NCBI GenBank assembly: GCA_042584585.1
Contig: JBHOSQ010000006.1
Coordinates: 266-64,265, forward strand
Reading direction: 5' to 3'
Origin: an archaeon
Lineage (GTDB): Archaea > B1Sed10-29 > WALL01
Length of the DNA: 64,000 nucleotides
Within the stretch, counting starts at the first letter, position 1. Each line of letters starts with the position of its first letter. The notes under the pieces were generated by a model that worked only from the letters and a program-made list of their open reading frames with translations, was not told the origin of the DNA and did not search any database. Positions 3,894-48,263 of the stretch are shown one piece after another. Position numbers and translations under genes: made by a program.

Positions 3894-3979
3894 CGCCTGA
3901 AACTCAGGCGGCACGTCGGGACTGGACGTTGACTTGGGTCAACGTCGGGCCACGCGGGGCACAAGGCCCCGCAGAGGCA
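3894..3979 (+). repeat. H element copy A (long form with internal 22-bp palindrome)
   Basis: cgcctgaAACtcaggcg-GCACGT..-gacgttgacTTGGgtcaacgtc-..gcggggcACAAggccccgc-AGAGGCA. Confidence 0.8.
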
Positions 3980-4010
3980 TGAAAAGGCTTAAATCTATCC
4001 CCCCGGGACA

Positions 4011-4031
4011 GGAAAAGGCTTTTATCCCTCC
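4011..4031 (+). promoter_or_regulatory. consensus promoter motif without an adjacent ORF (orphan)
   Basis: ggaaaaggcttttatccctcc. The next credible ATG (4183) is about 160 nt away and has its own TATA-like ttactatatgg. Confidence 0.45.
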
Positions 4032-4182
4032 GCCGCAGTATCCATCGTGAAAAAGGACAGGCGCCACGACTTAAGGAAGCGAATGCTGGGGACCCGCCAT
4101 TGATTTTCTTGGGCGGGCGCACACGGCATTATCCTAAAATGTTACTATATGGATTTAAACCAGAAAATACAGAGAGTTATGT

Positions 4183-6366
4183 ATGAAACCTTGGTCAGTG
4201 TTTCTACTTGTTTTTTTGATGAGTGTTTTTGCTATTAGCCCGAGCACAATGGATTGGGCCGATTATGGTGAGCAAGAGGGAGAAACTTATTACGAGTGGC
4301 ATGTTGCTGATTCCCAGACCGATGAGAATCAGTGTGACCTTGACTTTAGCTCCCAGTCTGGAAATAGCGCGAGAAGCCCGGTCGCAGTCACCTCGGGCAA
4401 GCTGTACATAGACGGAGAGTTGATAGCAAGTGCGGACGGCTACTGGGATGATTTTCCCACCGAAAAACTCCAAAAGTTTTGTGGAGGTGTACACCGAATT
4501 GTCTTCAAGTCATCAGGTTACCAAGATTATGAGCGCGATGTCCTCATCCGCTGCTTCAGGGACGAGAGGTACAGCCGCAACGAACTTACTTTAATTAAGA
4601 ATGGGGTGAGCCAAGCCAAAAACAGTTTGAAGGAGGTGTACATAGACAAATGGGATTTGTCTCCGGTAGTGGGCTCAAAATTATTTGTGGATGAACGTTT
4701 TGTGGGCACTACCGGTTCGAGCGGAGAAATTACTTATTCGGTTTATTGCCCAGCAGCAAATAAGTTTATGATTAGTGGTACCCACTGGTCGAGTTCGATG
4801 GGTTCAGTATGCCCTAAAGCGAGTAAAGGGCTTTTTGAGAGCCAGTTCCCAAACAATTTCGCCAAGTCATCAGCAAAATCTCTTTCTGATTTCCCTGAAT
4901 GGGCTAAAAAAGATGTCACTTTGATTGCTATTGACGCCAACACTGGCAAACGGCTTTCTGATGTTGTTGTTGCCATTGACGGCAAGTTGGTTGGAGTTAC
5001 TGACCAATCCGGTGTTTTGGGTACAGGCCTCCCCGATTGCTCAAAAGGCGACATCACTGTAAAAGGGGTTAAGGAGGGGTATCTTGACAAAACACGAAAA
5101 GTGTTTAAGACCTTCGACTGTGCGGATTGTTACGGGCAAGAATATTGTTTGTATTCGCATCCATTATGGCAGTCAGAGGAAATTCCTGAAGAATTCGACC
5201 ATGAGCCACTAAGTTTTAGGCGTACCGTGCACTTGCTCCGTATGGCTCCGGCACTCCCATGCACAAGTGGTCTTGACTGCCCGAGCGAATTGCTCTGCGG
5301 TGAGGACGGGTTCTGCCATGAGCCCGAAGGAAATGTGGCAAAGCTTAACAAAACAGTTGAGCTTAACGAAACAGTTGAGCTTAACGAAACAATCGAAGAC
5401 AACTGCACAGCTCCTGAGTTTTGGTGCGAGCAGAAGCAGGAGTGCACCTCAAGCGAGCTCGCGTGCTATTGGGACTATAAACTGGAGAGCCCGTGCACAG
5501 CGGGATGGCCTGCGCACCAGGGCTCGACGAAGCACGTAAAGATTAATGTATTTGATTTTGGCTACCCCCCGAACCACGTCCACGGCTGTGACCTCTACGA
5601 AGTAAAGGATAGCGCCCTGCAGGGCATCGTGGACGAGGCACTGGACTGTTGCCTCAATGGATGTGGACCGCACTGTCAAAGCAGTTGTGCTGACAACAGG
5701 GCTAATTCTGCTGCCGATGAGTTCAAGGCGAATATAACCCTCAAGACTTGTGCCGGGTATTATTTGATAGATGGGCTGGGCCGGGAAAAACAGACAATGA
5801 GGGGCTACTACACTCCTGAAGTAAACTGTGCAAAGGGCACCACTGGCTATGGCACGAGTTGGGATTGCGGCAAAAGCCCCCAAAAATCATTCCCGAATGC
5901 GGTGGAGATGGTTTGTGAAAGGGAGCACAGGGGCGATGACGGCGAATTCACCAATCCACTGGGGTGGGCAGATAATACGGACATGTCCAAAAACAGCTGC
6001 GTGCTTTCCCCGCTGCCGGCGCATGCAAGCGTGTTTGATTTGAATACCGGCACGTGTTATGATTATTCCCTCGTGCTCACAACCCTTCTCAGAATGGCAG
6101 GTTATTCAGCTGATGAAGTTTATTCGGTCCACCAGGGCGACCACGTTTGGAATATAGTTAAATTCCCAGTTGACTACAAGTGGACTTTTGTGGACACCAC
6201 CGGGAATATACCAACCCCGTTCAAAAGGGGGGGTCTGCCGGGCGCTTCCTTCGATTACTGTGGCACTTATCCCTACGCAGAATGTGAGAATGACGGGGGG
6301 TACAGCCTAAGCTGTCCAGCAATAAATTCAGTTTGGGGTTGTGCAGACATTAGGGGGGTGGTTTAA
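4183..6366 (+). CDS. large secreted Cys-rich protein with C-terminal transglutaminase-like domain
   Basis: 727 aa with signal peptide MKPWSVFLLVFLMSVFA and many Cys. Has a tandem LNKTVE/LNETVE/LNETIE repeat. C-terminal GTCYDYSLVLTTLLRMAGY...GDHVWNIV...FVDTTG matches a Cys-His-Asp core. Confidence 0.7.
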   Translation: MKPWSVFLLVFLMSVFAISPSTMDWADYGEQEGETYYEWHVADSQTDENQCDLDFSSQSGNSARSPVAVTSGKLYIDGELIASADGYWDDFPTEKLQKFCGGVHRIVFKSSGYQDYERDVLIRCFRDERYSRNELTLIKNGVSQAKNSLKEVYIDKWDLSPVVGSKLFVDERFVGTTGSSGEITYSVYCPAANKFMISGTHWSSSMGSVCPKASKGLFESQFPNNFAKSSAKSLSDFPEWAKKDVTLIAIDANTGKRLSDVVVAIDGKLVGVTDQSGVLGTGLPDCSKGDITVKGVKEGYLDKTRKVFKTFDCADCYGQEYCLYSHPLWQSEEIPEEFDHEPLSFRRTVHLLRMAPALPCTSGLDCPSELLCGEDGFCHEPEGNVAKLNKTVELNETVELNETIEDNCTAPEFWCEQKQECTSSELACYWDYKLESPCTAGWPAHQGSTKHVKINVFDFGYPPNHVHGCDLYEVKDSALQGIVDEALDCCLNGCGPHCQSSCADNRANSAADEFKANITLKTCAGYYLIDGLGREKQTMRGYYTPEVNCAKGTTGYGTSWDCGKSPQKSFPNAVEMVCEREHRGDDGEFTNPLGWADNTDMSKNSCVLSPLPAHASVFDLNTGTCYDYSLVLTTLLRMAGYSADEVYSVHQGDHVWNIVKFPVDYKWTFVDTTGNIPTPFKRGGLPGASFDYCGTYPYAECENDGGYSLSCPAINSVWGCADIRGVV

Positions 6367-7059
6367 ATGAAAACCGCATTTTTGTTGATACTGTTTTTAG
6401 GGCTTTGTTCTGCCCAGTTGGTTGTTACACAGAGCGCACCTGCTACAGCTACAACTGGTGAAGCCATAACCGTGGACATAGTCGTTGAGAATGTCGGTAA
6501 TGAAATAGTTGATGTAGTTCTTGAGCAGATGGTAGGATACACCCCCCTCGAGCCCGAGCCGCAGGACCTGGGCATTGAAGGCTTTGTCACACCCCTCTAT
6601 TACCAGTGGGAATTCACACTCGCTCCTGGCGATAACTCAAAGGTTTTTTTCAGGGAGCGGCTGGACCATGCCTACAATTCTTATGTTGTTGGGTCTGCTG
6701 TTGCTTATGTTGGCGGCGAGACTTACGAGTCGAATTCCATTCGTATCGAAATAAGCTGCAACGCCAACGGAGTTTGCGAGTTTGAGGAAGGGGAACAGGC
6801 AATCAACTGCCCGCAGGATTGTGCAGGCGGTTCAGAGGATTTTTTATGCTTACCTGTTGAGGACGGGGTTTGCGATCCCGATTGTGCCAAAACAACGGAG
6901 GGCTGGGACCCTGACTGCACCGAAGAGGATTCGGGGGAGAATAGCACCTCTGGCGATAAAACCAACTACGTTTTGGTTGCGTTAGTTTTGGCTATAGGAC
7001 TAGGTGCCTTGTTAGCCGTTAAAAAGGGGATAATCCCTAACTTGCTGGAGCGGCGTTGA
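6367..7059 (+). CDS. cell-surface protein (signal peptide, Cys-rich stalk, C-terminal TM anchor)
   Basis: The start follows the stop of the upstream gene directly (taaATG). Signal MKTAFLLILFLGLCSA. Cys-rich segment CPQDCAGG...CDPDCAK...DPDC. C-terminal hydrophobic anchor NYVLVALVLAIGLGALLAV. Confidence 0.65.
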   Translation: MKTAFLLILFLGLCSAQLVVTQSAPATATTGEAITVDIVVENVGNEIVDVVLEQMVGYTPLEPEPQDLGIEGFVTPLYYQWEFTLAPGDNSKVFFRERLDHAYNSYVVGSAVAYVGGETYESNSIRIEISCNANGVCEFEEGEQAINCPQDCAGGSEDFLCLPVEDGVCDPDCAKTTEGWDPDCTEEDSGENSTSGDKTNYVLVALVLAIGLGALLAVKKGIIPNLLERR

Positions 7060-7094
7060 ATTGGCTGAACCGGGTCACGAGGGCAGAGCTTTAA

Positions 7095-7154
7095 ATGCCT
7101 ACCTGGAGCCACTCCCGCATTTCGACTTACGAGTCCTGCCCCCTGAAATTCTTC
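7095..7154 (+). pseudogene. orphan 5' fragment (20 codons) of the Cas4-like nuclease gene
   Basis: ATGCCTACCTGGAGCCACTCCCGCATTTCGACTTACGAGTCCTGCCCCCTGAAATTCTTC. It differs from 22658-22717 at 4 positions, all synonymous. Confidence 0.85.
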
Positions 7155-7163
7155 TTAACGGTG

Positions 7164-7985
7164 TCAAAACAGCGTACCGCGTTCCTCGGAGTATACTTGG
7201 CCGTTGTGATGTAGTTTTACGGTGATTGTTCCCATTGGAAAAACACCGGTGGGTTGTTTGTCGTATGGAGCCCTTACCCCGTATCCAAATAGAGTGCTAT
7301 ACTTTTCTGGGTTTAGTTGTATGCCTTTGGCGTCAATAACCGTGTCTGTTACCGTGTACGGGTTGGAGTTGGCGTCAAATTTAGTGGCTTCTGTTATAGC
7401 CAAAACATCTACTGTGCCATCCACCTCCATCATGTTGTCCTGCGCGTCATATGCCCTTAAGTCAAACTCAAGCCCGTCATCTTCCGAATCACTGTCCCAG
7501 TTCTTGCTTATTGGTGTTGATACAGAGATGTATTGCACAACCGGCGTGGGTTCGGGGGTTGGTTCTGCGGTTGGCTCCGGCGTTGGCGTGGGTTCGGGGG
7601 TTGGCTCAACCGTTGGTTCGGGGGTGGGCGTTGTGGTTGGAGTGCGTGTGTAGTTAGTGGAATAGATATTGTCGGAGAAGTATTGTGTGATGCCATTAGT
7701 GTCTGTCGCAGTCACCTTGATGTTGTGTACTCCTTCTGGGTACTGCTTGTCTTCGATAAGCTTTTCGCCTGGACTAAGGCTTGTTGTTTTTCCGTCGTCG
7801 AGGTCAACAACACAGCCCGTTGATTGTTCTGAATTCACGCAGTCCACTTCAATGTGCACGTTGAGGGGCGCGGGCCCGATTGTGTCATTGATGGCCAGTA
7901 TTGCTAGCTCAACTGTCGCGGGTGTGTCGTCAATACACCCCGCCAGTATGACAAGCGCCATGATCGCGAACAAAACCAACTTCAT
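7164..7985 (-). CDS. lipoprotein with PKD/Ig-like domain and Pro/Thr/Glu-rich linker
   Basis: Start taken at MKLVLFAIMALVILAGC (lipobox), about 25 nt after the minus-strand TATA in 8005-8025. Linker TPTTTPTPEPTVEPTPEPTPTPEPT. The track ORF extends to 8045. Confidence 0.65.
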   Translation of the reverse strand: MKLVLFAIMALVILAGCIDDTPATVELAILAINDTIGPAPLNVHIEVDCVNSEQSTGCVVDLDDGKTTSLSPGEKLIEDKQYPEGVHNIKVTATDTNGITQYFSDNIYSTNYTRTPTTTPTPEPTVEPTPEPTPTPEPTAEPTPEPTPVVQYISVSTPISKNWDSDSEDDGLEFDLRAYDAQDNMMEVDGTVDVLAITEATKFDANSNPYTVTDTVIDAKGIQLNPEKYSTLFGYGVRAPYDKQPTGVFPMGTITVKLHHNGQVYSEERGTLF

Positions 7986-8004
7986 GACGCTAGAAACGTG
8001 CTTT

Positions 8005-8025
8005 GGAAATAAAAACCCTTTTATC
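8005..8025. promoter_or_regulatory. near-palindromic bidirectional TATA motif
   Basis: ggaaataaaaacccttttatc. The minus-strand TATA serves gene 7164..7985. The plus-strand TATA abuts H hairpin 1. Confidence 0.55.
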
Positions 8026-8080
8026 AGCTTAAACTCAGCTGGCACGTTAGGCTTAGGGGCCTTCAGGCCCCTAGAGACAG
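8025..8080 (+). repeat. H element copy C
   Basis: cagcttaAACtcagctg-GCACGTTAGGCTT-aggggccTTCAggcccct-AGAGACAG. Its 3' end overlaps the last codons of minus-strand gene 8071..8514. Confidence 0.8.
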
Positions 8081-8514
8081 ACGCATTCCAACTGATTCTT
8101 TATCTCGTTACAAGCCAGCGAGAAATGTGTTTTGTCTTGTGTTAGGCACAAGTCTCTGCAGGAAGCTTCGACGGTGTCTTTTGTTTCTTGGGTGCCGTAC
8201 TCGTAGTAAGAACAGTACTTCGGGAGGTCATGCCACGCTGGCGGTGGCGGAGTGGGGGTTGGTGTTGGTTCTGGCGTTGGAATTGGCGTGGCTATAGGAA
8301 CTATAGTAACCACTGGGATGGGTGGAAGAGGCGTAGGAATTGGCTGTGGAGTTGGTGTAGCAAGAAACTGGTTTACGGTTCCAATTATTTGGCTTCCGTA
8401 CATTGGCCACACTATAAATGCAGACCCAGCCACCAAAAACAGCAAGAGGATTAAGATTAACCAGTTTTGCACTTTTACTAGAACATCCTCGTATATTGGC
8501 TTTGGGTTAGACAT
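8071..8514 (-). CDS. membrane-anchored protein with PT-rich linker and Cys-rich C-terminus
   Basis: 147 aa with an N-terminal TM (WLILILLLFLVAGSAFIVW) and linker PTPQPIPTPLPP...PTPEPTPTPTPPP. The C-terminus has 6 Cys. A minus-strand promoter aaagcttttatcagg lies upstream. Confidence 0.6.
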   Translation of the reverse strand: MSNPKPIYEDVLVKVQNWLILILLLFLVAGSAFIVWPMYGSQIIGTVNQFLATPTPQPIPTPLPPIPVVTIVPIATPIPTPEPTPTPTPPPPAWHDLPKYCSYYEYGTQETKDTVEASCRDLCLTQDKTHFSLACNEIKNQLECVCL

Positions 8515-8570
8515 ACAACTCTATTAGATTCTCCATTCCCTGATAAAAGCTTTACCTAACACCCACACAG

Positions 8571-8655
8571 CAGCTGAAACTCAGCCCAGACGAGAATCCG
8601 TTGGGATTCACGTCATGGCACGTTGTCCGTGACCCATACGGAGCCAGCGGACTAA
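8571..8655 (+). repeat. H element copy D (GTCCG...CGGAC subtype, with ~30-nt insertion after hairpin 1)
   Basis: cagctgaaactcagc + insert (gaatccGTTGggattc) + GGCACGTTGTCCGTgacccatacggagccAGCGGACTAA. Confidence 0.65.
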
Positions 8656-8680
8656 TCCATCCATTCGGCTTGCCTGGGGC

Positions 8681-8857
8681 TTACTCACTTGGGTAAACGC
8701 TTACTTCTTTCCTAGGGGTGTGCATAACGTTTGTTGACCCACATTCGCTGCACTTCAGACCCACCCGTTTTTTTGACTTGAACATGTTCCCACATTCCCT
8801 GCAGGTGTGTACGTCTTCGTCCATAATGTCCATACGGTTATTGGGGGCAAGAAGCAT
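8681..8857 (-). CDS. small zinc-ribbon protein
   Basis: CRECG...CSECG (CxxC-x15-CxxC). Start trimmed to MLLAPNN to avoid overlap with the upstream gene that ends at 8878. An alternative start is at 8833. Confidence 0.5.
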   Translation of the reverse strand: MLLAPNNRMDIMDEDVHTCRECGNMFKSKKRVGLKCSECGSTNVMHTPRKEVSVYPSE

Positions 8858-8877
8858 AAAATGGTTTATGTGTGAGG

Positions 8878-9696
8878 CTACCCTAGAGTAACGGTGCCCT
8901 GCAGCCACAGGTTCCCGCTCACGTAGTCGCCTTTCTTGAATTTTTTGCACATGCATTTTGGGGTGTAGATAACTAAATCAGCCTCGTTTTCGTACGAGCC
9001 GTCCAGCCTGAGGACACCAACAGTCAATTCAAACATTTGCTGGTCGTAGCACTTGAACGACGTCATTTTCTTTACTTGCCCCTGAAAAAAGTAGTCGTCG
9101 CTGTTTGCGTTAGCGCTCGTAAAACTGGCTGGAACCAGGCAAGCCATTGTTTTTGTGCTGACTTCCCCCATGCCTTTTGCCTTGAACTTTTTTTCTTTGG
9201 CTTTTTCGACGTAGTAAGCCAACCCACAAAGGCTTACTGTGACCTCGTCTCCAACGTTATAAAACTGTTTTTTCTTGTAGTATTCGACGTCAAAGAAAGT
9301 TAAAGCTGTACTGCCGTCCATACTCCCCACGTTCACCACGACTTCTCCTTCAACTTCGTTCATCCATTCGTCAACGCCCTGTATTGTGCCATTGAGGCTT
9401 AATGTGGTGGGCCCAACTGGAAATCCGCTGTAGACCGTCTTGTCAACAACGAGCATTCGAGTAAAGATTTTTCCGGAGGAATCATAAACGTCTAGGTCGT
9501 GGTCTTTGCCCAAAACATCGACTTTTTGTTTTTCGGTGGAAGACGCGTTCTTGATTGTATCATCAACCATGTTTAGTAGTTTGTCCTTGTCTCCCCCAAA
9601 AAAAACGAACCAGTGGTTGCCTTGCCCGCCTTCTTTCCGGGGCTTGCCCGGCTTTCCCGGGACTAGTTTTTTTAGCTTGTCCAACACGTTAACCAC
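8878..9696 (-). CDS. hypothetical protein
   Basis: Track ORF of 272 aa with protein-like composition. No domain recognised. Confidence 0.6.
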   Translation of the reverse strand: MVNVLDKLKKLVPGKPGKPRKEGGQGNHWFVFFGGDKDKLLNMVDDTIKNASSTEKQKVDVLGKDHDLDVYDSSGKIFTRMLVVDKTVYSGFPVGPTTLSLNGTIQGVDEWMNEVEGEVVVNVGSMDGSTALTFFDVEYYKKKQFYNVGDEVTVSLCGLAYYVEKAKEKKFKAKGMGEVSTKTMACLVPASFTSANANSDDYFFQGQVKKMTSFKCYDQQMFELTVGVLRLDGSYENEADLVIYTPKCMCKKFKKGDYVSGNLWLQGTVTLG

Positions 9697-9772
9697 TCCT
9701 TCACTTGTTTTCGACGAATGCTACTTATGCACTCCAAAACACTTAAATCTACTGCCTACATTACTGCCATCA

Positions 9773-9802
9773 ATGCCTACTTGGTCCCACTCCCGCATCA
9801 CA
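9773..9802 (+). pseudogene. orphan promoter plus 5' fragment (10 codons) of the nuclease gene
   Basis: TATA cttaaatc is followed 25 nt later by ATGCCTACTTGGTCCCACTCCCGCATCACA, which is joined directly to H hairpin 1. Confidence 0.8.
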
Positions 9803-9803
9803 A

Positions 9804-9922
9804 CAGCTGAAACTCAGCTGGCACGTTAGACTTGGGCTTGGCCCTGGACGTCGGTCCCCTTGACGTTGACTTGGGTCAACGTCCAGACACGCAACGTCAA
9901 CCTCCGGGGCCCCGCAGAGGCA
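9804..9922 (+). repeat. H element copy E (long form)
   Basis: cagctgaAACtcagctg-GCACGTTAGACTTGGG...gacgttgacTTGGgtcaacgtc...ggggcCCcgc-AGAGGCA. Confidence 0.8.
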
Positions 9923-9961
9923 TGAAAAGGCTTAAATCTATCCCCCGCATTACCCTTACCA

Positions 9962-10045
9962 ATGCCCCCCTGGTCCCACTCCAGAATCAGTACCTACGAG
10001 TCCTGTCCTCTCAAATTCTTTTATAGTTACGTCGAGAAGCCGGAA
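9962..10045 (+). pseudogene. orphan promoter plus 5' fragment (28 codons) of the nuclease gene
   Basis: Encodes MPPWSHSRISTYESCPLKFFYSYVEKPE*. The nucleotide sequence is strongly diverged (AGC>TCC, CGC>AGA, TCG>AGT, TCT>AGT) yet only 2 amino-acid changes result. Confidence 0.85.
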
Positions 10046-10054
10046 TAATCCAAT

Positions 10055-10975
10055 TCATTTCTTTTTCCCGTGTTTTGAAGTGTATTCATCGAGTTCTTTG
10101 AGGGACACGTGCCATTTCCTGCCTATTTTGGTGGCGCCGAGGAGGCCTCGCCGCGAGAGGAGGCTTAGGTATTCCTGGCTGTACGGCGAGTGCTTGGCTG
10201 CCTCGGAGAGTGGGACGAGCCCCGTTTTTTTCCCTGGCTTTTGGAGTGCTTCGAGGTATATGTTCAGGGACTGCTCTACTGCGCGGGCAATGAAGTTCAC
10301 GAGGGGGGCGGGGTTGCCCTTGTCTGCTTCTTTTAGTGCGCGGTAGTACTTTTTTCTGTCGACGAGCCTTAGCACTGTTGGGGGGTAGCCTTCCCTGAAC
10401 AGCATTAGGTTCATCAAGAGCCTTGCGGTCCTGCCGTTGCCGTCGAAGAACGGGTGTATCCACACGAGCTTGTGGTGGGCGAGGGCGGCTTTTTCGATTG
10501 GGTCTTGTTTTGTCGCCTGCATCCACTTGACGAGTTCTCGCATGAGCCGCAGGAGCTTCTGTGGCGCCGGCGGGGTGAACGATGCCCCCGTAATCCTGAT
10601 TCTTTTGTCCCTGTACCTGCCCGCGTATTCGCTGGTCCCTTTCATGAGGATTTCGTGGGTCTCGAGAATGGTTTCTTCAGTGATTTTTTTGGTGCCTTTG
10701 GCTATTGACTCTGTCCACTCCAGCGCTTTTTCGTGGTTTTGTGCCTCGAGGTATTCGTTGAGTGGCTTGCCGCCGACGGTTATTCCTTCTTCCAGAATAA
10801 GCCGGGTTTCCTGGAGCGTGAGCGTGTTTCCTTCAATCGCGTTGGAGTTATAGGTAAGCTCGATGTTCATTTGGTGCCTCAAGCGCTCCACCGCGTCTCG
10901 CGGGAGGGGCCGGAGGCTGTCCAGCAAGGCCTTCTTTGCCTTGATTCTTTCGCGCAGACGCTCATTCAACAACAT
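10055..10975 (-). CDS. fic: Fic/DOC family protein (AMPylase-type Fido domain) with C-terminal HTH-like tail
   Basis: Canonical Fic motif HPFFDGNGRTARLLMN (HxFx[D/E]GNGRxxR). The N-terminal helical region is typical of Fic proteins. TATA-like gttaataaaacg lies about 20 nt upstream. Confidence 0.9.
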   Translation of the reverse strand: MLLNERLRERIKAKKALLDSLRPLPRDAVERLRHQMNIELTYNSNAIEGNTLTLQETRLILEEGITVGGKPLNEYLEAQNHEKALEWTESIAKGTKKITEETILETHEILMKGTSEYAGRYRDKRIRITGASFTPPAPQKLLRLMRELVKWMQATKQDPIEKAALAHHKLVWIHPFFDGNGRTARLLMNLMLFREGYPPTVLRLVDRKKYYRALKEADKGNPAPLVNFIARAVEQSLNIYLEALQKPGKKTGLVPLSEAAKHSPYSQEYLSLLSRRGLLGATKIGRKWHVSLKELDEYTSKHGKKK

Positions 10976-11071
10976 TATCGGATACCTCGTTTTATTAACT
11001 ACCCGATATTATGCAGTATCGGGTATTTAAGCTTTTCGCTTTCCCGATATACGGACAAGAAACCGTTTTAT

Positions 11072-11160
11072 CGCCTGAAACTCAGGCGGCACGTTAGGCT
11101 TGGGCTTGGCCCTGGACGTTGACCCAAGTCAACGTCAACCTCCGGGGTGCCCATAGGCAG
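11072..11160 (+). repeat. H element copy F1 (long form, palindrome loop inverted)
   Basis: cgcctgaAACtcaggcg-GCACGTTAGGCTTGGG..gacgttgacCCAAgtcaacgtc..ATAGGCAG. Confidence 0.8.
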
Positions 11161-11199
11161 GGAAAAACCTTTTATCCCTCCAACGCATTACCCTTAGCG

Positions 11200-11241
11200 A
11201 TGCCTACTTGGTCCCACTCAAGAATCAGCACGTACGATTCC
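11200..11241 (+). pseudogene. orphan promoter plus 5' fragment (14 codons) of the nuclease gene
   Basis: Encodes MPTWSHSRISTYDS, again with Ser/Arg codon-family switches, then H hairpin 1. Confidence 0.8.
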
Positions 11242-11296
11242 AGCTTAAACTAAGTTGGCACGTTTGGCTTGGGAACCTAACGGTTCCCAGAGGCAG
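11241..11296 (+). repeat. H element copy F2
   Basis: cagcttaAACtaagttg-GCACGTTTGGCTT-gggaaccTAACggttccc-AGAGGCAG. Confidence 0.8.
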
Positions 11297-11301
11297 AACA
11301 C

Positions 11302-11475
11302 TTATTTTTGTTGTATTCGGCCCACGAAGTTGACGAAGAACATGACTGCGGATATAAAGAAGATTGTTCCTCCGGTCGTATCGCCTTTGATGAAATAGTT
11401 TATGCTGGGCAACAGGAACGCTATGGTGGAAACCAGCCAGGGGTAAGGCCCGTCAAACCAGGTTTGTTTTTTCAT
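11302..11475 (-). CDS. small two-TM membrane protein (57 aa)
   Basis: My own translation: MKKQTWFDGPYPWLVSTIAFLLPSINYFIKGDTTGGTIFFISAVMFFVNFVGRIQQK. The ATG is about 25 nt after the minus-strand TATA of the palindromic motif 11496-11516. It is below the track's size cutoff. Confidence 0.4.
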   Translation of the reverse strand: MKKQTWFDGPYPWLVSTIAFLLPSINYFIKGDTTGGTIFFISAVMFFVNFVGRIQQK

Positions 11476-11495
11476 GACTCAAAAAACGCGCTTCT

Positions 11496-11516
11496 GGAAT
11501 AAAAACCCTTTTATCC
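11496..11516. promoter_or_regulatory. near-palindromic bidirectional TATA motif
   Basis: ggaataaaaacccttttatcc. The minus side lies 25 nt upstream of small ORF 11302..11475. Confidence 0.5.
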
Positions 11517-11521
11517 ATTTT

Positions 11522-12286
11522 TCACGCGATTCTTTTGTCGTGGAGCTTTAGCGCGGGGAGGGGCGTGCCGAGCAGTTTCTTGATTTTGCCTTTGTTGTAC
11601 TTGACGTGTTTTTCCCACTTTTTCTCGGCTTCTTTTTGCATGTGCTGGATGTTGTTGAGGACTTCTGTGAGGGCTTTCTGGTCGATTGTGGTGGCGCCGT
11701 CGCCTATGTGCCACCCGTCGCCGACTGTGATGCCGAGGACGTGGGGGAGGAACCTGTTTTCTTTTGGCGCCGCGTCCATTCTGAAGTAAAGCAGCACGAA
11801 GCACAGGGCTTTCTTGGTTTTTTTGCGGAGTTCATCGTATTTTTTTATGAAGGTGCCGTCGGCGTCGTTTGACGAGAGGACTAATAGGGCGGTGTCTTTA
11901 CTGTTGACTTCCGGGATTGTCTTTACTGGGACGCCAAGTGTTTTGGCCAGTGCAGTGGCAGTGAATATGTCGTGTGGGCCGGCGGTGACGACCACAGTAA
12001 ACTTTGTTTTGCTGGCCTTGATGTCCTGGACGAGCCTGTTGAGGGTGATTGCCAACTCCGGCTGGACCGTGTAGTTGTGGAGGAGATACCCAGGTATTGT
12101 TATTCCGTCGTCGTAGCTGGTTCCGAGTGCTATGACCCCGCCTTTCTTGATTGATTGTTCTATGCACTTACGGGTCTCTTCCACAGCGTCTAGGAGCTTG
12201 GCTTGGCTCTTTTCGCGGGCTTTTTTTGCTTCTTCCTCGCGCTTTTTTGCTGTGGGATCAATTTTGTCAAGCAGTTTGCGGAACAT
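11522..12286 (-). CDS. hypothetical protein
   Basis: Track ORF of 254 aa. Several overlapping ORFs in other frames look spurious. No domain recognised. Confidence 0.6.
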   Translation of the reverse strand: MFRKLLDKIDPTAKKREEEAKKAREKSQAKLLDAVEETRKCIEQSIKKGGVIALGTSYDDGITIPGYLLHNYTVQPELAITLNRLVQDIKASKTKFTVVVTAGPHDIFTATALAKTLGVPVKTIPEVNSKDTALLVLSSNDADGTFIKKYDELRKKTKKALCFVLLYFRMDAAPKENRFLPHVLGITVGDGWHIGDGATTIDQKALTEVLNNIQHMQKEAEKKWEKHVKYNKGKIKKLLGTPLPALKLHDKRIA

Positions 12287-12335
12287 ACTTTTTTACTTGT
12301 TTTTGGTTGATTTATTCTTTACGCCAGAAACCCTT

Positions 12336-13019
12336 TTATCCTACTTTTTTGGCTATGCTTGTGAGCATGTCGAGGACGGGAATTACTCTTTCTTGGTCGA
12401 ACAGCCTTACGCCTGCTACTGTGAGCTTGAGTTCGTTGTTTTGAATGGTTATTCCCTGGTTTTTTTGCCAGAGGCCCCTGTGCTCAAGCCGGTGTGGCAT
12501 GCTTATGTGCTCGAACAGCTTGTTTAGTTGCTGTGGGTCGTCCAGAACCTTCAGTGCTTTTTGTTGTTGGTTGGTTGCCACCTTGAATTCTGGGGCGAGG
12601 CCGGCGTCGGGTTGTTCAAGTTCTTTTCCTTCTTTTTCAACAAACGATGAGTAGCCCACCACGGTTTTTTGTGTTGTTGGCTTGGTGGTGATTATGAAGT
12701 CCGTGAAGTCAAGCCACTGGATTCCCAGGAACCTTTCGGCGAATTGTGTGGAGAGGGTGTACCACCTGATTTTCACGGCCATTCCTCTGTACGTGCCCGT
12801 TATTGTCCTTGCTTCGGTCACGTGATTGCCGCCGGTGAAGTCAGTCATTTGCCTGAGCAGTCCCATGCCTTTGCGCTCGACTGCGTACGTGAACCCCAGG
12901 CTCTTGGCCAGTTTCTTGAGTGGGTTTCCGCACAAAAGCTTGTAGACAACCCCTAGAATAATAAGGAAAAGGCCGAGGGACATGGAAACGACTTCCCATA
13001 CAGTAAACCCGAACCACAT
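12336..13019 (-). CDS. membrane-anchored hypothetical protein
   Basis: Start moved to MWFGFTVWEVVSMSLGLFLIILGVVYKLL (TM), 30 nt after the minus-strand TATA (gatttaag) of bidirectional motif 13039-13059. The longer track ORF (to 13295) would overlap the divergent gene. Confidence 0.55.
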   Translation of the reverse strand: MWFGFTVWEVVSMSLGLFLIILGVVYKLLCGNPLKKLAKSLGFTYAVERKGMGLLRQMTDFTGGNHVTEARTITGTYRGMAVKIRWYTLSTQFAERFLGIQWLDFTDFIITTKPTTQKTVVGYSSFVEKEGKELEQPDAGLAPEFKVATNQQQKALKVLDDPQQLNKLFEHISMPHRLEHRGLWQKNQGITIQNNELKLTVAGVRLFDQERVIPVLDMLTSIAKKVG

Positions 13020-13038
13020 GAAGAGGCAAACACGAAAG

Positions 13039-13059
13039 AAACACTTAAATCTATCGCCT
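13039..13059. promoter_or_regulatory. bidirectional TATA (cttaaatc / gatttaag) between divergent genes
   Basis: It lies about 30 nt from ATG 13019 (-) and about 25-30 nt from ATG 13075 (+). Confidence 0.55.
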
Positions 13060-13074
13060 GTTTTAGTGGTGGCT

Positions 13075-13860
13075 ATGAAGCGCGTTGTGTTGCTTTTGTT
13101 GTTGTTGTCGGTTGGCTTTGCTTGTATGGCTCCAGTATACGAACTGGATTTTGTGCCGGAAATGATTTCCGTGCTCAAAGAAATGCCGGACAATACGTGC
13201 GCCGAAACAGATTGGGCCTGGTCATCAGTCCTGGAAATCGTTAAGGAAACTGATGAATATCTTTTGATGGCAAACGCAGAAAAAACAAAGTACATAATCG
13301 CTCAACCAGAATGCGTAAACGCCACTTATGACAGTCAAAACGCTTCAAACAACTGGGCACTATTCAACTGTTCTCACGCAGATGGGTTCTCAGTCTTTGA
13401 CTGCAACACGAAGAACCCTGGCGGGTACTGCGCGCCGTACCGCGAGGACGACACGGTTGCAGTGGACGAAATCACTGCTGTTTCAGGAGTGACCAGGGAA
13501 CAATTGGTTTTTCAAACACCTGCGTACTACCCCGAAGAAGACGTTCTCGGGCAGGGCCCAATCGTCGTCATGAAATGCGGAGACGAATACATATTCACAG
13601 AAGAATACGAAAATTGTGGGAGATATTGGAACCCATTGGTTGTGGGGGTGGATGAATTCCTCAGAATGCTCCGCCCAATAAGCTTTTTAACCGCGCTGTT
13701 TTGTGGGTTCGCCATTTTTGTTTTGGCAGCCAGTAGGCTCTGGAACGAAAACATAAAAAAGCGGGAGCCAGACCGCCAAACAAAACTGCTCCTGAAAATA
13801 CTGGCAGTGGTTTTCATGGTTTCGCTGGTAGTATTCATAATCGCCATAACATTTTTCTAA
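13075..13860 (+). CDS. secreted protein with C-terminal TM anchors
   Basis: ATG 13075 gives MKRVVLLLLLLSVGFAC, 25-30 nt after TATA cttaaatc. Two C-terminal hydrophobic helices. Cys-rich ectodomain. Confidence 0.6.
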   Translation: MKRVVLLLLLLSVGFACMAPVYELDFVPEMISVLKEMPDNTCAETDWAWSSVLEIVKETDEYLLMANAEKTKYIIAQPECVNATYDSQNASNNWALFNCSHADGFSVFDCNTKNPGGYCAPYREDDTVAVDEITAVSGVTREQLVFQTPAYYPEEDVLGQGPIVVMKCGDEYIFTEEYENCGRYWNPLVVGVDEFLRMLRPISFLTALFCGFAIFVLAASRLWNENIKKREPDRQTKLLLKILAVVFMVSLVVFIIAITFF

Positions 13861-13870
13861 TGTGATTAAA

Positions 13871-13927
13871 ATGTCCACTTGGAGCCACTCCCGCTTGTCG
13901 TGCTATGAACACTGCCCCCTCAACTTC
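13871..13927 (+). pseudogene. diverged 5' fragment (19 codons) of a nuclease-gene homolog
   Basis: Encodes MSTWSHSRLSCYEHCPLNF followed by H hairpin 1. An in-frame stop falls in the hairpin (..SLN*). Confidence 0.7.
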
Positions 13928-14460: not shown

Positions 14461-14480
14461 ACACACCAAAACACGTTTCA

Positions 14481-35383: not shown

Positions 35384-38397
<3,014 letters not shown>

Positions 38398-38428
38398 TAT
38401 TTCTTTCACGGGAACCTACATTTCCTCT

Positions 38429-38443
38429 ACAACGACTATGCAC
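38429..38443 (-). other. 23S rRNA 5' processing-stem half
   Basis: acaacgactatgcac on the + strand is complementary to 35340-35354. Confidence 0.75.
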
Positions 38444-38606
38444 GTAAGTTTTACCGACAACACCTGCCAAAGCGCCGTCTCCTTACATCGCATCACGAAA
38501 TTACTCGCGATGTTCATTCGTAATCGGTCCATGCCCGACTCAGCTCCGGCCGAAGCCGGCGTCATTGCCTTCGATACATGGACAATGGTTGTTAAATGGA
38601 TGAACG

Positions 38607-39047: not shown

Positions 39048-39063
39048 GTGAACTCACTTGAAA

Positions 39064-39137
39064 TGGACTCGGGGGGATTTGAACCCCCGACCCCCCGCTT
39101 GCAAAGCGGGTGCTCTTCCGAACTGAGCCACGAGCCC
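39064..39137 (-). tRNA. tRNA-Ala (anticodon UGC), no encoded CCA
   Basis: Hand-folded: acceptor GGGCUCG/CGAGUCC with G3:U70. D arm GCUC..GAGC. Anticodon arm CCCGC-UUUGCAA-GCGGG. T arm GGGGG-UUCAAAU-CCCCC. Discriminator A. Confidence 0.9.
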
Positions 39138-39157
39138 AGCTCAATTAAGTGTTAAAA

Positions 39158-39171
39158 ATGTGGGTAACTGC
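39158..39171 (-). other. 16S rRNA 3' processing-stem half
   Basis: atgtgggtaactgc is perfectly complementary to gcagttacccacat at 40890-40903. Confidence 0.7.
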
Positions 39172-39298
39172 CTCAAACGAGTGGTCATAGGATAAAGCAA
39201 AAAGTTTGCTCCAATTAGCTGCACACTCGTAAGTTAGGTGGGGAGGCAGCCGACCGACGTTGACCGAAGTCAACGTCAATGGCTGCTCCCCGAATCTA

Positions 39299-40772
<1,474 letters not shown>

Positions 40773-46213: not shown

Positions 46214-46768
46214 TTATACCCCTGCCACGAGTGCGGTGAACAAAAACAGGACGACTGCCCACGCGGTGCCTGCGCGGGGCTGGTTCATGAACCCCATCAG
46301 CCCCAGGACAATGCGCGCAGGTATGAGGAGGGGGAGGGTAAGCCAGTGCAGGAGCGTTGACACGACGCCTTTCTGGAGAAGTAGCCGGCTTTTGTAGTGG
46401 CGCCACAGCACTTTCCACCCGCTCTTCAAGTCGGTCTCGCTGGGAAAAGCGAAGTAGGCGAACGATGCGCCGAGCCAATAAAACAGGAGGATGTACCCGA
46501 TTTTTCCGGGGACAAAGAAAGCGGTTTTCATGAGCGCGATGTGGCCCACCCACAAAGCGACGACAGCCAAGAGGGTATTCAGGAAAAACGGCGCGATGGC
46601 GACCACAAAGTTTTTCCATCCCGTGGTGGGGCGGTGCGTGACGCTGGCCCCGCTTTTTCCCCAGAGCTTTATTTTGGTCATGTCCACGCCGAGCAGCACA
46701 CAAGCCACTGCGTGCGCTATTTCGTGCAGCATCATTCCAGGGAAGAAGAGGAAGGAATTCATCAACAA
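46214..46768 (-). CDS. membrane-embedded HExxH metalloprotease-like protein
   Basis: N-terminal MMLHEIAHAVACVLLG (HExxH) followed by 4-5 TM helices. The overlapping 282-aa ORF 46194..47042 is rejected. Confidence 0.55.
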   Translation of the reverse strand: MLMNSFLFFPGMMLHEIAHAVACVLLGVDMTKIKLWGKSGASVTHRPTTGWKNFVVAIAPFFLNTLLAVVALWVGHIALMKTAFFVPGKIGYILLFYWLGASFAYFAFPSETDLKSGWKVLWRHYKSRLLLQKGVVSTLLHWLTLPLLIPARIVLGLMGFMNQPRAGTAWAVVLFLFTALVAGV

Positions 46769-46886
46769 CCATTAAAAAGCGCTTGAATAAAACACTACCG
46801 GCAATGATGATACCGCCCCAGGTCGAGGCGCCCTCTTCGCGAGGGAAGGCCAATGAGATTCGGAGTAGCTTCTGAGCCAATGCATG

Positions 46887-46943
46887 CCTGTTTGCGGAGG
46901 CTTGCCTCCGCTTTAGTCTAACGTGCCGCCTGAGTTTCAGGCG
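46887..46943 (-). repeat. H element copy, minus orientation
   Basis: Reverse complement reads cgcctgaAACtcaggcg-GCACGTTAGACTAAA-gcggaggcAAGcctccgc-AAACAGG. Confidence 0.7.
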
Positions 46944-47032
46944 CTGCTGAGCCATAATAAGTACCCCATAGGCGAAATGCTTTTTGCCGTCTTTTTCTAT
47001 TTCATTCACCATAGGATTAGTTGTGTACTGCC

Positions 47033-48079
47033 CTAATTCCATTGAAACTTTTTCTTGTTCCGTTTCATTATCTCGACTAATGAGAGCATTACAGGCACTT
47101 CCACTAGCACCCCCACCACAGTAGCCAGAACAGCTCCGGAATTCATTCCAAATAGGATTAAAGCAACTGCCACAGCCAGCTCAAAGAAATTACTGGCCCC
47201 TATGAATGTTGCCGGAGCAGCTTCGCTGAACGGTATTCTCAACTTCTTTGTTGCGAAATAACCTATGGAAAATATGAGGTAGGTTTGAAGCATCAATGGG
47301 ATTGCGATCAATACTATATGGAATGGGAACTTGATGATTTTGTCGCCTTGGAGTATGAAAAGCAACACCAGTGTGACCAGCAACCCAGCAGGGGCCACCC
47401 ACGCTATAGGCTTAATGACTTTTTCTTCAAACCAGGTTACACCCTTTTTCTTTGTTATCCAATACCTCGTCAGTATGGCTAGTACCAAAGGCACTGCCAC
47501 ATAAAGTAGTACTGAAAAGAATATGGTGTCAAATGGCACAGGTATATCTGCAGTATAATTTAAGAGAAACGCGCCAAGTGGCGCGAACAGCACTAAGAGG
47601 ACTAAATCATCAATAGACACCTGGACTAGCGCATAGTTTATATTGGCTTTTGCCAGATGAGTCCATACCAAAACCATTGCAGTACACGGAGCTAATCCTA
47701 AAAGAATCATTCCGGCCATGTACTCTGTTCGTAAATCAGGGGGTATAAACCCCGCAAACAACACATGCATGAAAAGCCATGCAATAAACGCCATTGTAAA
47801 TGGCTTGATAGCCCAATTTAGTATAGATGTAAGAATAATCGGTTTGGGTTTAGCCCTTACCTCTAACACTTTTTTAAAGTCTAGGTTAAGCATGATGGGA
47901 TACATCATCACCAACAGCACTGCAGCGACTGGAATGGAAACTTTTGCGACCTCGAATCCACCAAGAGCAGTGGCAAACCCCGGAAAGAGGTATCCTATTG
48001 CCGTGCCTAGCATTATGCAAATCACTACCCACAACGGCAGGTACTTCTCAAAGACACCCAGTCCAGAACCTTTTTTCAT
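47033..48079 (-). CDS. acr3: ACR3-family arsenite efflux permease
   Basis: N-terminus GLGVFEKYLPLWVVICIMLG and LLGLAPCTAMVLVW (conserved Cys region) are typical of ACR3/ArsB(Bacillus-type). Ten TM helices. Confidence 0.8.
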   Translation of the reverse strand: MKKGSGLGVFEKYLPLWVVICIMLGTAIGYLFPGFATALGGFEVAKVSIPVAAVLLVMMYPIMLNLDFKKVLEVRAKPKPIILTSILNWAIKPFTMAFIAWLFMHVLFAGFIPPDLRTEYMAGMILLGLAPCTAMVLVWTHLAKANINYALVQVSIDDLVLLVLFAPLGAFLLNYTADIPVPFDTIFFSVLLYVAVPLVLAILTRYWITKKKGVTWFEEKVIKPIAWVAPAGLLVTLVLLFILQGDKIIKFPFHIVLIAIPLMLQTYLIFSIGYFATKKLRIPFSEAAPATFIGASNFFELAVAVALILFGMNSGAVLATVVGVLVEVPVMLSLVEIMKRNKKKFQWN

Positions 48080-48157
48080 GTTAGTCGTGTCCTTCGAACA
48101 TGATTACTGCCCACAAGTAGGTATGAGAGCTATAAAAATGTGCTGCTCACTAATAGC

Positions 48158-48202
48158 GCCGATGAGTGGCTTACTAGGCGTTAGAAGAGTAGCTGCTGAG
48201 CC
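48158..48202 (+). ncRNA. candidate k-turn / C/D-box-like small RNA (copy 1)
   Basis: gcCGATGAgtggcttactaggcgttagaagagtagctgCTGAgcc. TATA ctataaaaatg lies about 25 nt upstream. It lacks clear C'/D' boxes. Confidence 0.25.
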
Positions 48203-48207
48203 AATTA

Positions 48208-48263
48208 CTGTCTCTGGGAACCGTTAGGTTCCCAAGCCTAACGTGCCAGCTGAGTTTCAGCTG
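48208..48263 (-). repeat. H element copy, minus orientation
   Basis: Reverse complement reads cagctgaAACtcagctg-GCACGTTAGGCTT-gggaaccTAACggttccc-AGAGACAG. Confidence 0.8.

Follow-up and report, generated by a model that had tools for sequence, protein, structure and literature searches.

The H element and its genomic surroundings

The stretch analyzed in this study, in the following called the window, comprises 64,000 nucleotides of contig JBHOSQ010000006.1 (assembly GCA_042584585.1, positions 266 to 64,265) from an archaeon of the lineage B1Sed10-29 (WALL01). It is part of an archaeal chromosome and contains a 16S - tRNA-Ala - 23S ribosomal RNA (rRNA) operon on the minus strand, a low-GC island of defense genes beside it and, on both sides of the operon, copies of an intergenic repeat of 55-120 nt with two hairpins, here called the H element (Table 1). 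The first base of hairpin 1 was found to be an insertion junction, and H is discussed here as the putative conserved end of DNA insertion elements.

The window was searched with the degenerate pattern CNSCTNAAACTNAGSNGGCACGT, which covers hairpin 1 and GGCACGT, allowing up to 3 mismatches and using shuffled sequences as controls. This resulted in 13 matches, whereas 0.09 were expected from the shuffles. They correspond to copies 1, 2 and 4 to 12 on the plus strand and to copies 13 and 14 on the minus strand, where they begin at 46943 and 48263. The fourteenth H element is copy 3, in which hairpin 1 and GGCACGTT are separated by an extra hairpin. When a covariance model was run without filters, no further convincing copy appeared in the window; a weak match at 58532-58578 on the minus strand lies within a coding region and was treated as a chance match. 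A preliminary description made from the letters of the window had listed 14 copies, 12 on the plus and 2 on the minus strand, and both the pattern scan and the covariance model agree with it.

Each H element consists of a 7-bp hairpin with an AAC loop (hairpin 1), followed by GCACGTT and a second hairpin with a variable but always pairing stem (hairpin 2). Four types of 3' modules were distinguished: type I, GGCTT-[hairpin]-AGAGRCA; type II, GTCCGT-[hairpin]-CAGCGGAC; type III, GACGA-[hairpin]-GGCGGCA; and type IV, GACTAAA-[hairpin]-AATAGGCA. The four hairpin-1 variants and the hairpin-2 stems of the preliminary description were all found in the window, whereas some of its details had to be corrected. 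The tail AGAGGCAG, given as the consensus, belongs to one subtype only, and the hairpin-2 loops measure 3-5 nt instead of 3-4 nt. The statement that every change in hairpin 1 is compensated holds for most copies, the exceptions being those at 8025 (T-C mismatch) and 11241 (G-T wobble). The motif TTTTAT, described as abutting hairpin 1 in four copies, is TTGTTAT at 3894.

Compensatory changes in the two hairpins

A covariance model was built from 35 copies and run on 243 kb, consisting of the window and 29 related loci (referred to by L numbers), where it detected 58 significant H copies. In an alignment of 61 distinct copies from the window and related loci, 95.3% of the cells were paired compared to 75.5% in shuffles, although this alignment was fitted to the covariance model and the pairing statistics are therefore not model-independent. 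Changes on both sides were present in 12 of 14 pairs, with a total of 134 compensated cells, and none of 500 shuffles matched the observed pairing and covariation. When pairing partners were slid as a control, pairing fell to 23-51%.

An independent run of MAFFT and RNAalifold identified the same three covarying hairpin-1 pairs (A-U/G-C, G-C/C-G and G-C/U-A). The outer stem of type II covaries as well, changing from GTCCG/CGGAC to GCCCG/CGGGC in L046. The preservation of two hairpins by compensatory change, which had been proposed from the window copies, is upheld and indicates the folding of a single strand. The 134 double changes are accompanied by only 3 wobble cells, none of them in hairpin 2. 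Such nearly pure Watson-Crick covariation is what a DNA hairpin predicts and an RNA helix usually does not, and it favors folded DNA.

Pairing between the GRC...GRCA junctions, or between linker and tail, is predicted by RNAfold in some types, but was discarded since the GGC/GAC variants do not covary. Readings of the hairpins as K-turn, C/D, H/ACA, tRNA-like or CRISPR-repeat structures were compared by eye, and none fits the invariant and variable positions.

Distribution of the repeat family

In a scan of one genome per species, the pattern of hairpin 1 and GGCACGTT was found 25 times in a metagenome-assembled genome (MAG) of Iainarchaeum and twice in a MAG named 'Nanobdellati archaeon'; elsewhere only single chance matches in bacteria occurred. 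A metagenome scan added 11 true copies from three sample sets. The H family is confined to Iainarchaeia-type DPANN genomes and a few metagenomes. Around the matches, the sampled loci carry about one H element per 4 kb.

Among related copies, a further hairpin-1 variant was found (CGGCTKA/TMAGCCG). Distant subfamilies combine other first hairpins with other linkers (CAGCCCAGACCTGGGCTG with GCGAGGTA, TCCAATTGCGATTGGA with GCAACCGC) and retain the layout of two hairpins. The MAG 'Candidatus Iainarchaeum archaeon RS_17_2' (JAGMCR01) includes a contig to which part of the window (40.5-46.8 kb) is syntenic at 77-82% nucleotide identity, which makes the source of the window a related DPANN archaeon belonging to another species or genus. 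At the orthologous sites L024 and L043, the H elements share 56 of 59 nt, while the flanks are about 70% identical as judged by eye, not computed.

No match to H was found in Rfam at gathering thresholds, nor at E<=5 in the regions 3800-21600 and 46500-48500. No H element was found in PLSDB or in GenBank phages, and blastn of H against phages and plasmids was likewise negative. Three pattern scans of IMG/VR resulted in one chance match only. A viral or plasmid origin was rejected on these grounds and because a megablast of 3-23 kb against phage records returned nothing. The literature on Diapherotrites/Iainarchaeota was searched for such a repeat and no description was found. H is a genuine structured, lineage-restricted repeat family without a match in the libraries and literature searched.

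Insertion junctions in related loci

The 40 nt upstream of hairpin 1 were compared to the 600 nt downstream of it, with random positions as control. An exact direct repeat of at least 10 nt was found for 14 of 35 copies in related loci (3% of random positions), and one of at least 14 nt for 9 of 35 (0.25%). The repeats are about 10-39 nt in length and lie directly 5' of hairpin 1, with the second copy 60-300 nt downstream. When mismatches are allowed, the repeat extends to the first base of H and spans 16-29 nt.

The downstream copy of the repeat is the genuine 3' end of a gene, namely of tRNA-Ser, Arg, Val, Gly and Leu genes, several intron-containing tRNA genes and a C/D box small RNA (sRNA) gene. 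These RNA genes lie on the strand opposite to H, which converges on every one of them. In two further cases, it is the last codons of a co-oriented protein gene that are repeated. The general layout is a partial gene 3' end, the H element, 0-290 nt of other repeat modules and the intact gene 3' end. For tRNA genes, the repeat has a length of 16-23 nt, starting in the T-loop (at about positions 53-59) and ending 0-3 nt beyond the 3' end; a repeated tRNA part up to the 3' end, with the tRNA regenerated, was observed in L010, L016, L020, L026, L028, L031 (twice), L038 and L019. The repeat at the C/D sRNA covers the D box and the terminal stem, and other repeats correspond to the trailer in the 23S processing stem. 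L008 differs in that the first 13 nt of the C/D sRNA, including the C box, are duplicated instead; its insert brings a TTTTTTAAA box to promoter distance from the intact sRNA.

Degenerate fragments of tRNA genes (L020, L016), of a gene end (L030) or of the trailer (L001), each followed by H, were found in tandem, as repeated insertion at one target would produce. Nearly identical inserts were found at different targets. L017 and L019 belong to separate contigs of one MAG, and their inserts share 93% identity over 191 nt but have different repeats of 17-18 nt; those of L031b and L039 are 93% identical and lie at different tRNA genes. An insert composed of H and TTTTCCATCGACGCTTTTCCACC...GTAACAGAAAAAGGGTCG (E1) is present at a tRNA gene and at a protein-gene end in L010 and L022; for a third E1-type copy (L051a), neither a mapped target nor a flanking repeat was found. 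Near-identical inserts with different repeats show that the repeat is derived from the target, which is the signature of a transposable unit and argues against an attachment site of its own for each copy.

The inserts vary in length and composition. The shortest comprises 64 nt (L038). Behind H there is either nothing, about 70-290 nt of repeat modules, a promoter-plus-gene cassette or the 13.8-kb defense segment of the window. At the end of some composite inserts stands a truncated H-like unit in inverted orientation, for example CTCAGCGTCCTTAGGGGGAGC...GCTCCCCC. The E2-type inserts have an inverted H-like unit at their end, and a full inverted H variant is present in L031b and L039.

L030 (WALL01000028.1) contains at positions 1-7100 a plasmid- or virus-like segment that adjoins H. 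The segment carries four copies of CTCCCCCGCAGCGCT, which is the 3' end of an HTH_17 gene, as well as iteron-like TTTTTCCATAG repeats and a 458-aa protein with a P-loop and a winged helix-turn-helix domain. The HTH_17 gene is 62% identical to the C-terminus of the Fic/DOC protein in the window.

Junctions and polarity beside the rRNA operon

In the window, H copy 12 forms the left end of a 13.8-kb segment that is enclosed by a 24-bp direct repeat (AGTTGGCAGTGCATAGTCGTTGTA) derived from the 3' trailer of the 23S gene. The alignment of the left repeat runs on imperfectly through the 3 nt before hairpin 1. Of the resident trailer copy, 15 nt pair with the 5' flank of the 23S gene to form the processing stem. 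The cargo encodes a 373-aa protein without known family besides the nuclease, the restriction-modification (R-M) enzyme, the HARE-HTH protein, the GHKL ATPase and the C5 DNA methylase listed in Table 1. Several further proteins of 370-400 aa in this island had no match in Pfam or in the PDB. In L001, the same trailer fragment with differing inner cut points stands before three tandem units of H, promoter and gene.

Copy 13 lies next to a probable C/D box sRNA gene, as its sequence features suggest, with a TATA-like box about 25 nt upstream. Rfam gave only a weak SNORD31 signal for it (E=2.6). The sRNA is 95% identical to positions 1651-1731 of L008, while the flanking genes share 77-82%. At this same sRNA, L008 bears other H types and extra modules. 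The different H types indicate independent insertions at one target.

Flanking repeats were also found within the plus-strand array. At 16583 (AAAAACCCTTTTAT/AAGAACCTTTTTAT) and 11072 (AAACCGTTTTAT/AAACCTTTTAT) they abut hairpin 1, and at 9804 a repeat of 20 nt lies near it. Random positions reach repeat scores of this size in 0.03-4% of cases. In total, a direct repeat adjoins hairpin 1 at four or five window copies. The TATA-like box that had been reported to abut hairpin 1 is indeed present, but at 16583 and 11072 it has another meaning than the one assumed: it is the left copy of a duplicated promoter sequence, of which the right copy follows directly after H.

The 12 H copies located from 3.9 to 21.5 kb and the nine copies of a second repeat (Y module, see below) all lie on the plus strand, directed towards the 3' end of the rRNA operon on the minus strand. 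Confirmed genes among them are encoded on the minus strand (Fic/DOC, 10055-10975, E=1e-27; 8071-8514; 18034-18693), and the latter two have homologs beside H in other loci. The two minus-strand H copies are located on the far side of the operon and face probable or possible small RNA genes on the plus strand. Copy polarity on both sides of the operon indicates that the orientation of H follows the targeted RNA gene and not the neighboring protein genes. The GC skew of the window was uninformative with respect to a replication-strand bias.

Accessory modules and neighboring features

Several short modules accompany the H elements. A palindrome module, GGACGTTGAC(TTGG/CCAA)GTCAACGTC, is located between linker and hairpin 2 in three H copies (3921-3948, 9846-9892 and 11117-11140), and the same perfect palindrome stands alone beside H in L013. 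The extra hairpin YCARACGAGAATCC...GGGATTCACGTYAT between hairpin 1 and GGCACGTT was found at 8586-8616 of the window and in L007, L008, L013 and L022; its loop may hold 40-80 nt of additional hairpins (L007, L022).

The Y module is a C-rich and G-poor repeat of about 80 nt (ATCCCCCGCATTACCCTTACCAATGCCTACYTGGTCCCACTCC...ACGTACGAGTCCTGYCCCCTCAACTT). It begins directly after a TATA-like box, sits before H and meets H at variable points. The reverse complement of Y folds better (-16 to -21 compared to -9 to -10 kcal/mol). The module is specific to the window and was not found in the JAGMCR01 loci. The sequence AATAAAAACCCTTTTAT is present four times (8008-8024, 11498-11514, 14483-14499 and 16567-16582), is TATA-like on both strands and may represent a shared bidirectional promoter or terminator motif.

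Three further segments lie close to the RNA genes. The 139 nt from the second trailer repeat to the resident trailer (35190-35328) contain a GGCACGT-bearing palindrome, GTGGCACGTACATATGTGCCAT, and no H; they may be a decayed or a different insert. A plus-strand segment at 48141-48203 ends in ...GTAGCTGCTGAGCC like the 3' end of the C/D sRNA, is preceded by CTATAAAAATG, and has copy 14, in reverse complement, 5 nt behind it. The segment could be another small RNA gene, or no more than the region of a divergent promoter for the SBF transporter gene (47033-48079, minus strand). An open reading frame (ORF) of 146 aa (38607-39047, minus strand) was found in the spacer of about 670 nt between tRNA-Ala and 23S, with a CxxC...CxxC N-terminus and a Lys/Glu-rich C-terminus. 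A protein-coding gene within an rRNA operon spacer would be unusual.

Table 1. H elements, associated repeats and neighboring features of the window.
Feature	Position	Strand	Remarks
H copy 1	3894-3979	+	CGCC-type hairpin 1, GCACGTCG linker; palindrome module GACGTTGAC...GTCAACGTC inserted ahead of hairpin 2
H copy 2	8025-8079	+	Type I; T-C mismatch in hairpin 1; AATAAAAACCCTTTTAT just before
H copy 3	8571-8652	+	Hairpin 1, inserted hairpin CCAGACGAGAATCCGTTGGGATTCACGTCAT, GGCACGTTG, type II 3' module
H copy 4	9804-9922	+	Long insert variant; upstream 9774-9793 found again at 9963-9982
H copy 5	11072-11159	+	Insert variant; flanks AAACCGTTTTAT (11060-11071) and AAACCTTTTAT (11165-11175)
H copy 6	11241-11295	+	Type I; G-T wobble in hairpin 1
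H copy 7	13927-13982	+	Type I
H copy 8	16583-16638	+	Type I, CGCC hairpin 1; duplicated promoter-like flanks AAAAACCCTTTTAT (16569-16582) and AAGAACCTTTTTAT (16641-16654)
H copy 9	18792-18846	+	Type I
H copy 10	19792-19844	+	Type II, GTCCGT...CAGCGGAC
H copy 11	20984-21035	+	Type II; 19 nt past stop codon of co-oriented ORF 20552-20965
H copy 12	21405-21459	+	Type I; left end of 13.8-kb insertion
H copy 13	46885-46943	-	Type IV; 7 nt from C/D sRNA 3' end; flanks GCTGCTGAGCC (46944-46954) and GCTTCTGAGCC (46868-46878)
H copy 14	48209-48263	-	Type I; 5 nt from end of plus-strand segment ending ...GTAGCTGCTGAGCC (to 48203)
Y module, full copy	9935-10017	+
Y module, other copies	7092-7150, 9750-9803, 11178-11240, 13871-13926, 17955-18035, 18735-18791, 20961-20983, 22655-22713	+
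Left direct repeat AGTTGGCAGTGCATAGTCGTTGTA	21378-21401	+	Partial copy of 23S 3' trailer in reverse complement; end is 3 nt short of hairpin 1 of copy 12
13.8-kb segment	21402-35165		Within 24-bp repeat; GC 44.6% compared to 50-53% around
Right direct repeat	35166-35189	+	24 of 24 nt identical to 21378-21401
Resident trailer copy	35329-35352	+	Imperfect match to AGTTGGCAGTGCATAGTCGTTGTA; reverse complement of 3' strand of 23S processing stem
Defense island	22655-35072		Low GC (~42-46%)
PD-(D/E)XK nuclease	22655-23806		In defense island
Eco57I/MmeI-like type IIG R-M enzyme	23796-26678	-	In defense island
HARE-HTH protein	26776-27927		In defense island
GHKL ATPase	29901-32042		In defense island
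C5 DNA methylase	34011-35072	-	In defense island
16S - tRNA-Ala - 23S operon	35391-40771	-
Probable C/D box sRNA	46800-46878	+	79 nt; target of copy 13; AUGAUGA (C box), AAUGAGA (C'-like), CUGA (D box); terminal stem GGC/GCC

H as the proposed left end of insertion elements

We favor the reading, to which we give about an even chance, that H is the conserved cis-acting left end of mostly non-autonomous DNA insertion elements in Iainarchaeia-type DPANN archaea. Three functions had been suggested for H at the outset (terminator or insulator, small RNA, recombination site), and the last of them is preferred here, since hairpin 1 lies exactly at the junction of insert and duplicated target. Insertions of this kind at RNA-gene 3' ends are the most likely origin of the gene-cassette and defense island beside the rRNA operon.

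In the proposed mechanism, a recombinase or transposase would read hairpin 1 and GGCACGTT, perhaps also hairpin 2, in the form of folded single-stranded DNA. It would join the base of hairpin 1 to a stem-loop-rich target, with duplication of a stretch of this target. As the duplication would regenerate the 3' end of the gene, the gene that is hit would survive, which would explain how such insertions persist in a compact genome. The A-rich or TTTTAT box often found after H could serve as an outward promoter for the cargo, and the hairpins may additionally block read-through into it. Repeated insertions at one target would result in same-strand arrays.

Several observations weigh against this reading. 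No integrase, transposase, Cas1 or reverse transcriptase was detected with Pfam among about 60 ORFs of the window (essentially all larger ones), nor among the best 25 of 70 families from 98 H-flanking ORFs of the 29 loci. Most H copies of the window have no recognizable flanking repeat; they are assumed to be older insertions. The right end of the insert is not conserved and mostly lacks a terminal inverted repeat, the repeat length of 11-39 nt is not fixed as it is for most transposases, and no pair of empty and filled sites was recovered, so that mobility is inferred. In addition, folding of the sense strand is slightly more stable than that of its complement (38 copies compared to 9), mainly due to a U-G pair that is predicted for type I copies at the foot of hairpin 2, and both features would also fit an RNA. 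Finally, hairpin 2 is wholly different in L017 and L019, although the remainder of these inserts is about 95% identical. This would require module shuffling or gene conversion among copies.

The search for the enzyme was extended by Pfam to L001 and L030, where none of the same enzyme classes was found. Comparison of three proteins of the 13.8-kb segment without assigned family to the PDB using phmmer revealed no recombinase match, and Y1_Tnp was not among the best 25 of the 70 families from the H-flanking ORFs. Terminal inverted repeats were found neither in minimal inserts (L038; window 46885-46943) nor in any window copy.

A more far-reaching version of this reading is possible but doubtful. 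It takes H as the recognition site of an undescribed, structure-guided DNA insertion system that targets RNA-gene 3' ends (tRNA T-arm, C/D sRNA stem, 23S processing stem) in a fixed orientation and with variable target duplication, inserts promoter-equipped cassettes, forms integron-like arrays of cargo and defense genes downstream of the rRNA operon, and depends on an enzyme outside the known integrase, transposase and Cas1 families.

Alternative explanations

An unlikely alternative is that H acts primarily at the RNA level, as a 3' untranslated region, a terminator or an insulator, and only travels with mobile cassettes. It would fold within the upstream gene's transcript, stabilize or end this transcript, and keep read-through away from the following promoter or from a convergent RNA gene. 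The start of about 11 of 47 copies falls at -12 to +30 nt from the stop codon of a co-oriented ORF, hairpin 1 itself provides TGA or TAA in two frames, and a T-run or TATA-like box follows within about 30 nt in 11 of 13 window copies. The more stable sense strand with its recurrent U-G pair, the UUCG-type and RCAAG loops and the conservation of H at orthologous sites would also be consistent with a structured RNA. However, H stays on the plus strand at 8-13 kb and at about 18-19 kb despite the minus-strand genes there (Fic/DOC and the two others named above), and a passenger terminator would have no reason to occupy the exact insertion junction in more than 14 independent inserts. The near absence of wobble pairs from the covariation does not fit either, and archaeal termination depends on oligo-T and not on hairpins. 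Termination or insulation may nevertheless be a secondary function of H.

It is also rather improbable that H is the attP-proximal arm of integrase-type elements, in the manner of genomic islands, cis-mobilizable elements or tycheposons, with the flanking repeats as attL/attR identity blocks that the element brings along instead of target duplications, and the short inserts as deletion remnants or as satellites mobilized in trans. Integration within tRNA genes reportedly follows a sublocation rule, ascribed to Williams (2002). The repeats of 16-23 nt from the T-loop to the 3' end match the classic footprint of a tyrosine integrase with crossover in the T-loop, and it is documented that integrating elements duplicate tRNA genes in part (PMC9897764). 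In the left repeat, the mismatches are concentrated on the side of H, as expected of a hybrid att site. Tandem accretion, the low-GC defense cargo and the plasmid-like segment with iteron-like repeats beside such repeats in L030 point in the same direction. What this explanation does not accommodate are the near-identical small inserts with different repeats at different targets, each of which would require a separate attP. Double-stranded circles are implausible for inserts of down to 64 nt, and no integrase was found in the 13.8-kb element or in the families from the H-flanking ORFs considered above.

Very unlikely is an interpretation of the H elements as independent small RNA genes, or as a host element similar to repetitive extragenic palindromic (REP) sequences that is bound by a structural protein, without any role in insertion. 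TATA-like boxes stand directly upstream of some copies, a layout of TATA, Y, H and T-run recurs in the window, and the two-hairpin architecture is kept across subfamilies with unrelated first hairpins (CAGCCCAGACCTGGGCTG, TCCAATTGCGATTGGA). Yet most copies have no upstream promoter, and where one abuts hairpin 1 transcription would start only after this hairpin. Neither idea explains the flanking repeats and the orientation rule. Adjacent copies are mostly in tandem, unlike the inverted pairs of REP sequences or bacterial interspersed mosaic elements (BIMEs), and no REP-associated tyrosine transposase (RAYT) was seen.

Least probable is H as a small retroposon whose sense RNA would enter the T-run terminators of RNA genes through target-primed reverse transcription: flanking duplications of variable length with the outer boundary 0-3 nt from the RNA 3' end by its T-run, an A-rich stretch on the 3' side of many inserts, the constant antisense orientation to the targeted gene, 5'-truncated copies (L024 803-863; window 4006-4030) and variable 3' extensions resembling 3' transduction would fit, but no reverse transcriptase was seen, the 13.8-kb insert with genes on both strands is implausible as RNA, many right ends are not A-rich, and a TATA box abutting hairpin 1 would start transcripts inside H and not at its first base. 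Target-primed reverse transcription takes up a small share of the probability given above to a structure-guided insertion system.

Comparison with known systems

Among the known systems closest to the insertion elements proposed here are the attC sites and cassette arrays of integrons. Both are structured single-strand sites in which pairing is kept while the stem sequence is free, and both are associated with same-strand arrays of 0.2-4-kb cassettes with accessory, toxin or defense genes in either orientation. Of the 12 plus-strand copies, 7 have a central GTTAGGC/GTTAGAC in agreement with GTTRRRY, the R' consensus, whereas type II (GTTGTCC) and the copies at 11241 (GTTTGGC) and 3894 (GTCGGGA) do not fit. 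In contrast to attC, this core lies in the middle of the element and not at its 3' end, no complementary R'' (RYYYAAC) was found within 150 nt on either side in 12 copies, and H consists of two separate perfect hairpins instead of one bulged R''-L''...L'-R' hairpin. H insertion leaves a duplicated target, which integron insertion does not, and the H cassettes carry their own promoter. The window ORFs gave no Pfam match to IntI or Phage_integrase. Iainarchaeota are not among the 75 MAGs described as archaeal integron hosts (PMC9668308). An identity of H with canonical attC was rejected on the basis of the central GTTRRRY, the missing R'' and the absence of Iainarchaeota from this published set.

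With MITEs (miniature inverted-repeat transposable elements), insertion sequence (IS) groups with long duplications (IS1634/IS1549, IS1202) and casposons, H shares short, non-coding, multi-copy inserts with target-derived direct repeats. Some composite H inserts end in an inverted H-like unit. Casposons duplicate about 14-15 bp at tRNA genes or gene 3' ends. H differs in that terminal inverted repeats are absent from minimal inserts, the repeats have no set length, conservation is limited to one end, and neither a DDE transposase nor Cas1 was found in the Pfam searches described above.

The tRNA-targeting integrative elements, cis-mobilizable elements (CIMEs) and tycheposon arrays likewise show a partial tRNA gene (T-loop to end) at the distal junction with regeneration of the tRNA gene, tandem accretion and defense cargo. 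They differ from the H inserts, which go down to 64 nt, can be one insert with different repeats, have no integrase found with them, and also target a C/D sRNA gene, the rRNA trailer, protein-gene ends and promoters.

REP/BIME sequences, palindrome-associated transposable elements (PATEs) of IS200/IS605 and mosaic repeats (BOX, Correia elements and neisserial intergenic mosaic elements, NIMEs) resemble H as intergenic hairpin repeats with compensatory changes and a mosaic of short modules, and their strand-specific folding suggests recognition of single-stranded DNA. REPs and PATEs insert without duplication, whereas H has flanking duplications. REPs have a GTAG-type tetranucleotide, are accompanied by a RAYT gene and occur mainly as inverted pairs; H is mostly found in tandem on the same strand, and no Y1 transposase was seen. 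Adjacent H copies are in tandem in L016, L020, L024, L007, L013, L022 and at 11072/11241 of the window, and inverted only in L021. REP/RAYT and IS200/IS605 models therefore fail on the duplications and the mostly tandem arrangement.

Compared with these systems, the unusual traits of H are the single conserved hairpin end, the long and variable duplications, the oriented targeting of RNA-gene 3' ends and the integron-like build-up of promoter-bearing cassettes beside the rRNA operon.

Significance

DPANN genomes are small and thought to be repeat-poor. H marks the borders of inserted DNA ranging from 64 nt to the 13.8-kb defense segment. H appears to be new as a family, yet of a known kind, namely the structured termini of non-autonomous mobile elements.

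Should H instead act in RNA as a terminator or insulator, no hairpin-based element of this kind would have been documented in the lineage before. If H is the end of an insertion system, it would provide a sequence handle to delimit mobile cargo and defense islands in uncultured Iainarchaeia, and it would account for odd annotations such as partial tRNA or sRNA fragments and duplicated promoters. It would also point to an enzyme with folded DNA as its substrate and with RNA-gene 3' ends, in one orientation, as its targets, and would offer an archaeal analog of integron-type cassette accumulation that standard attC searches miss.

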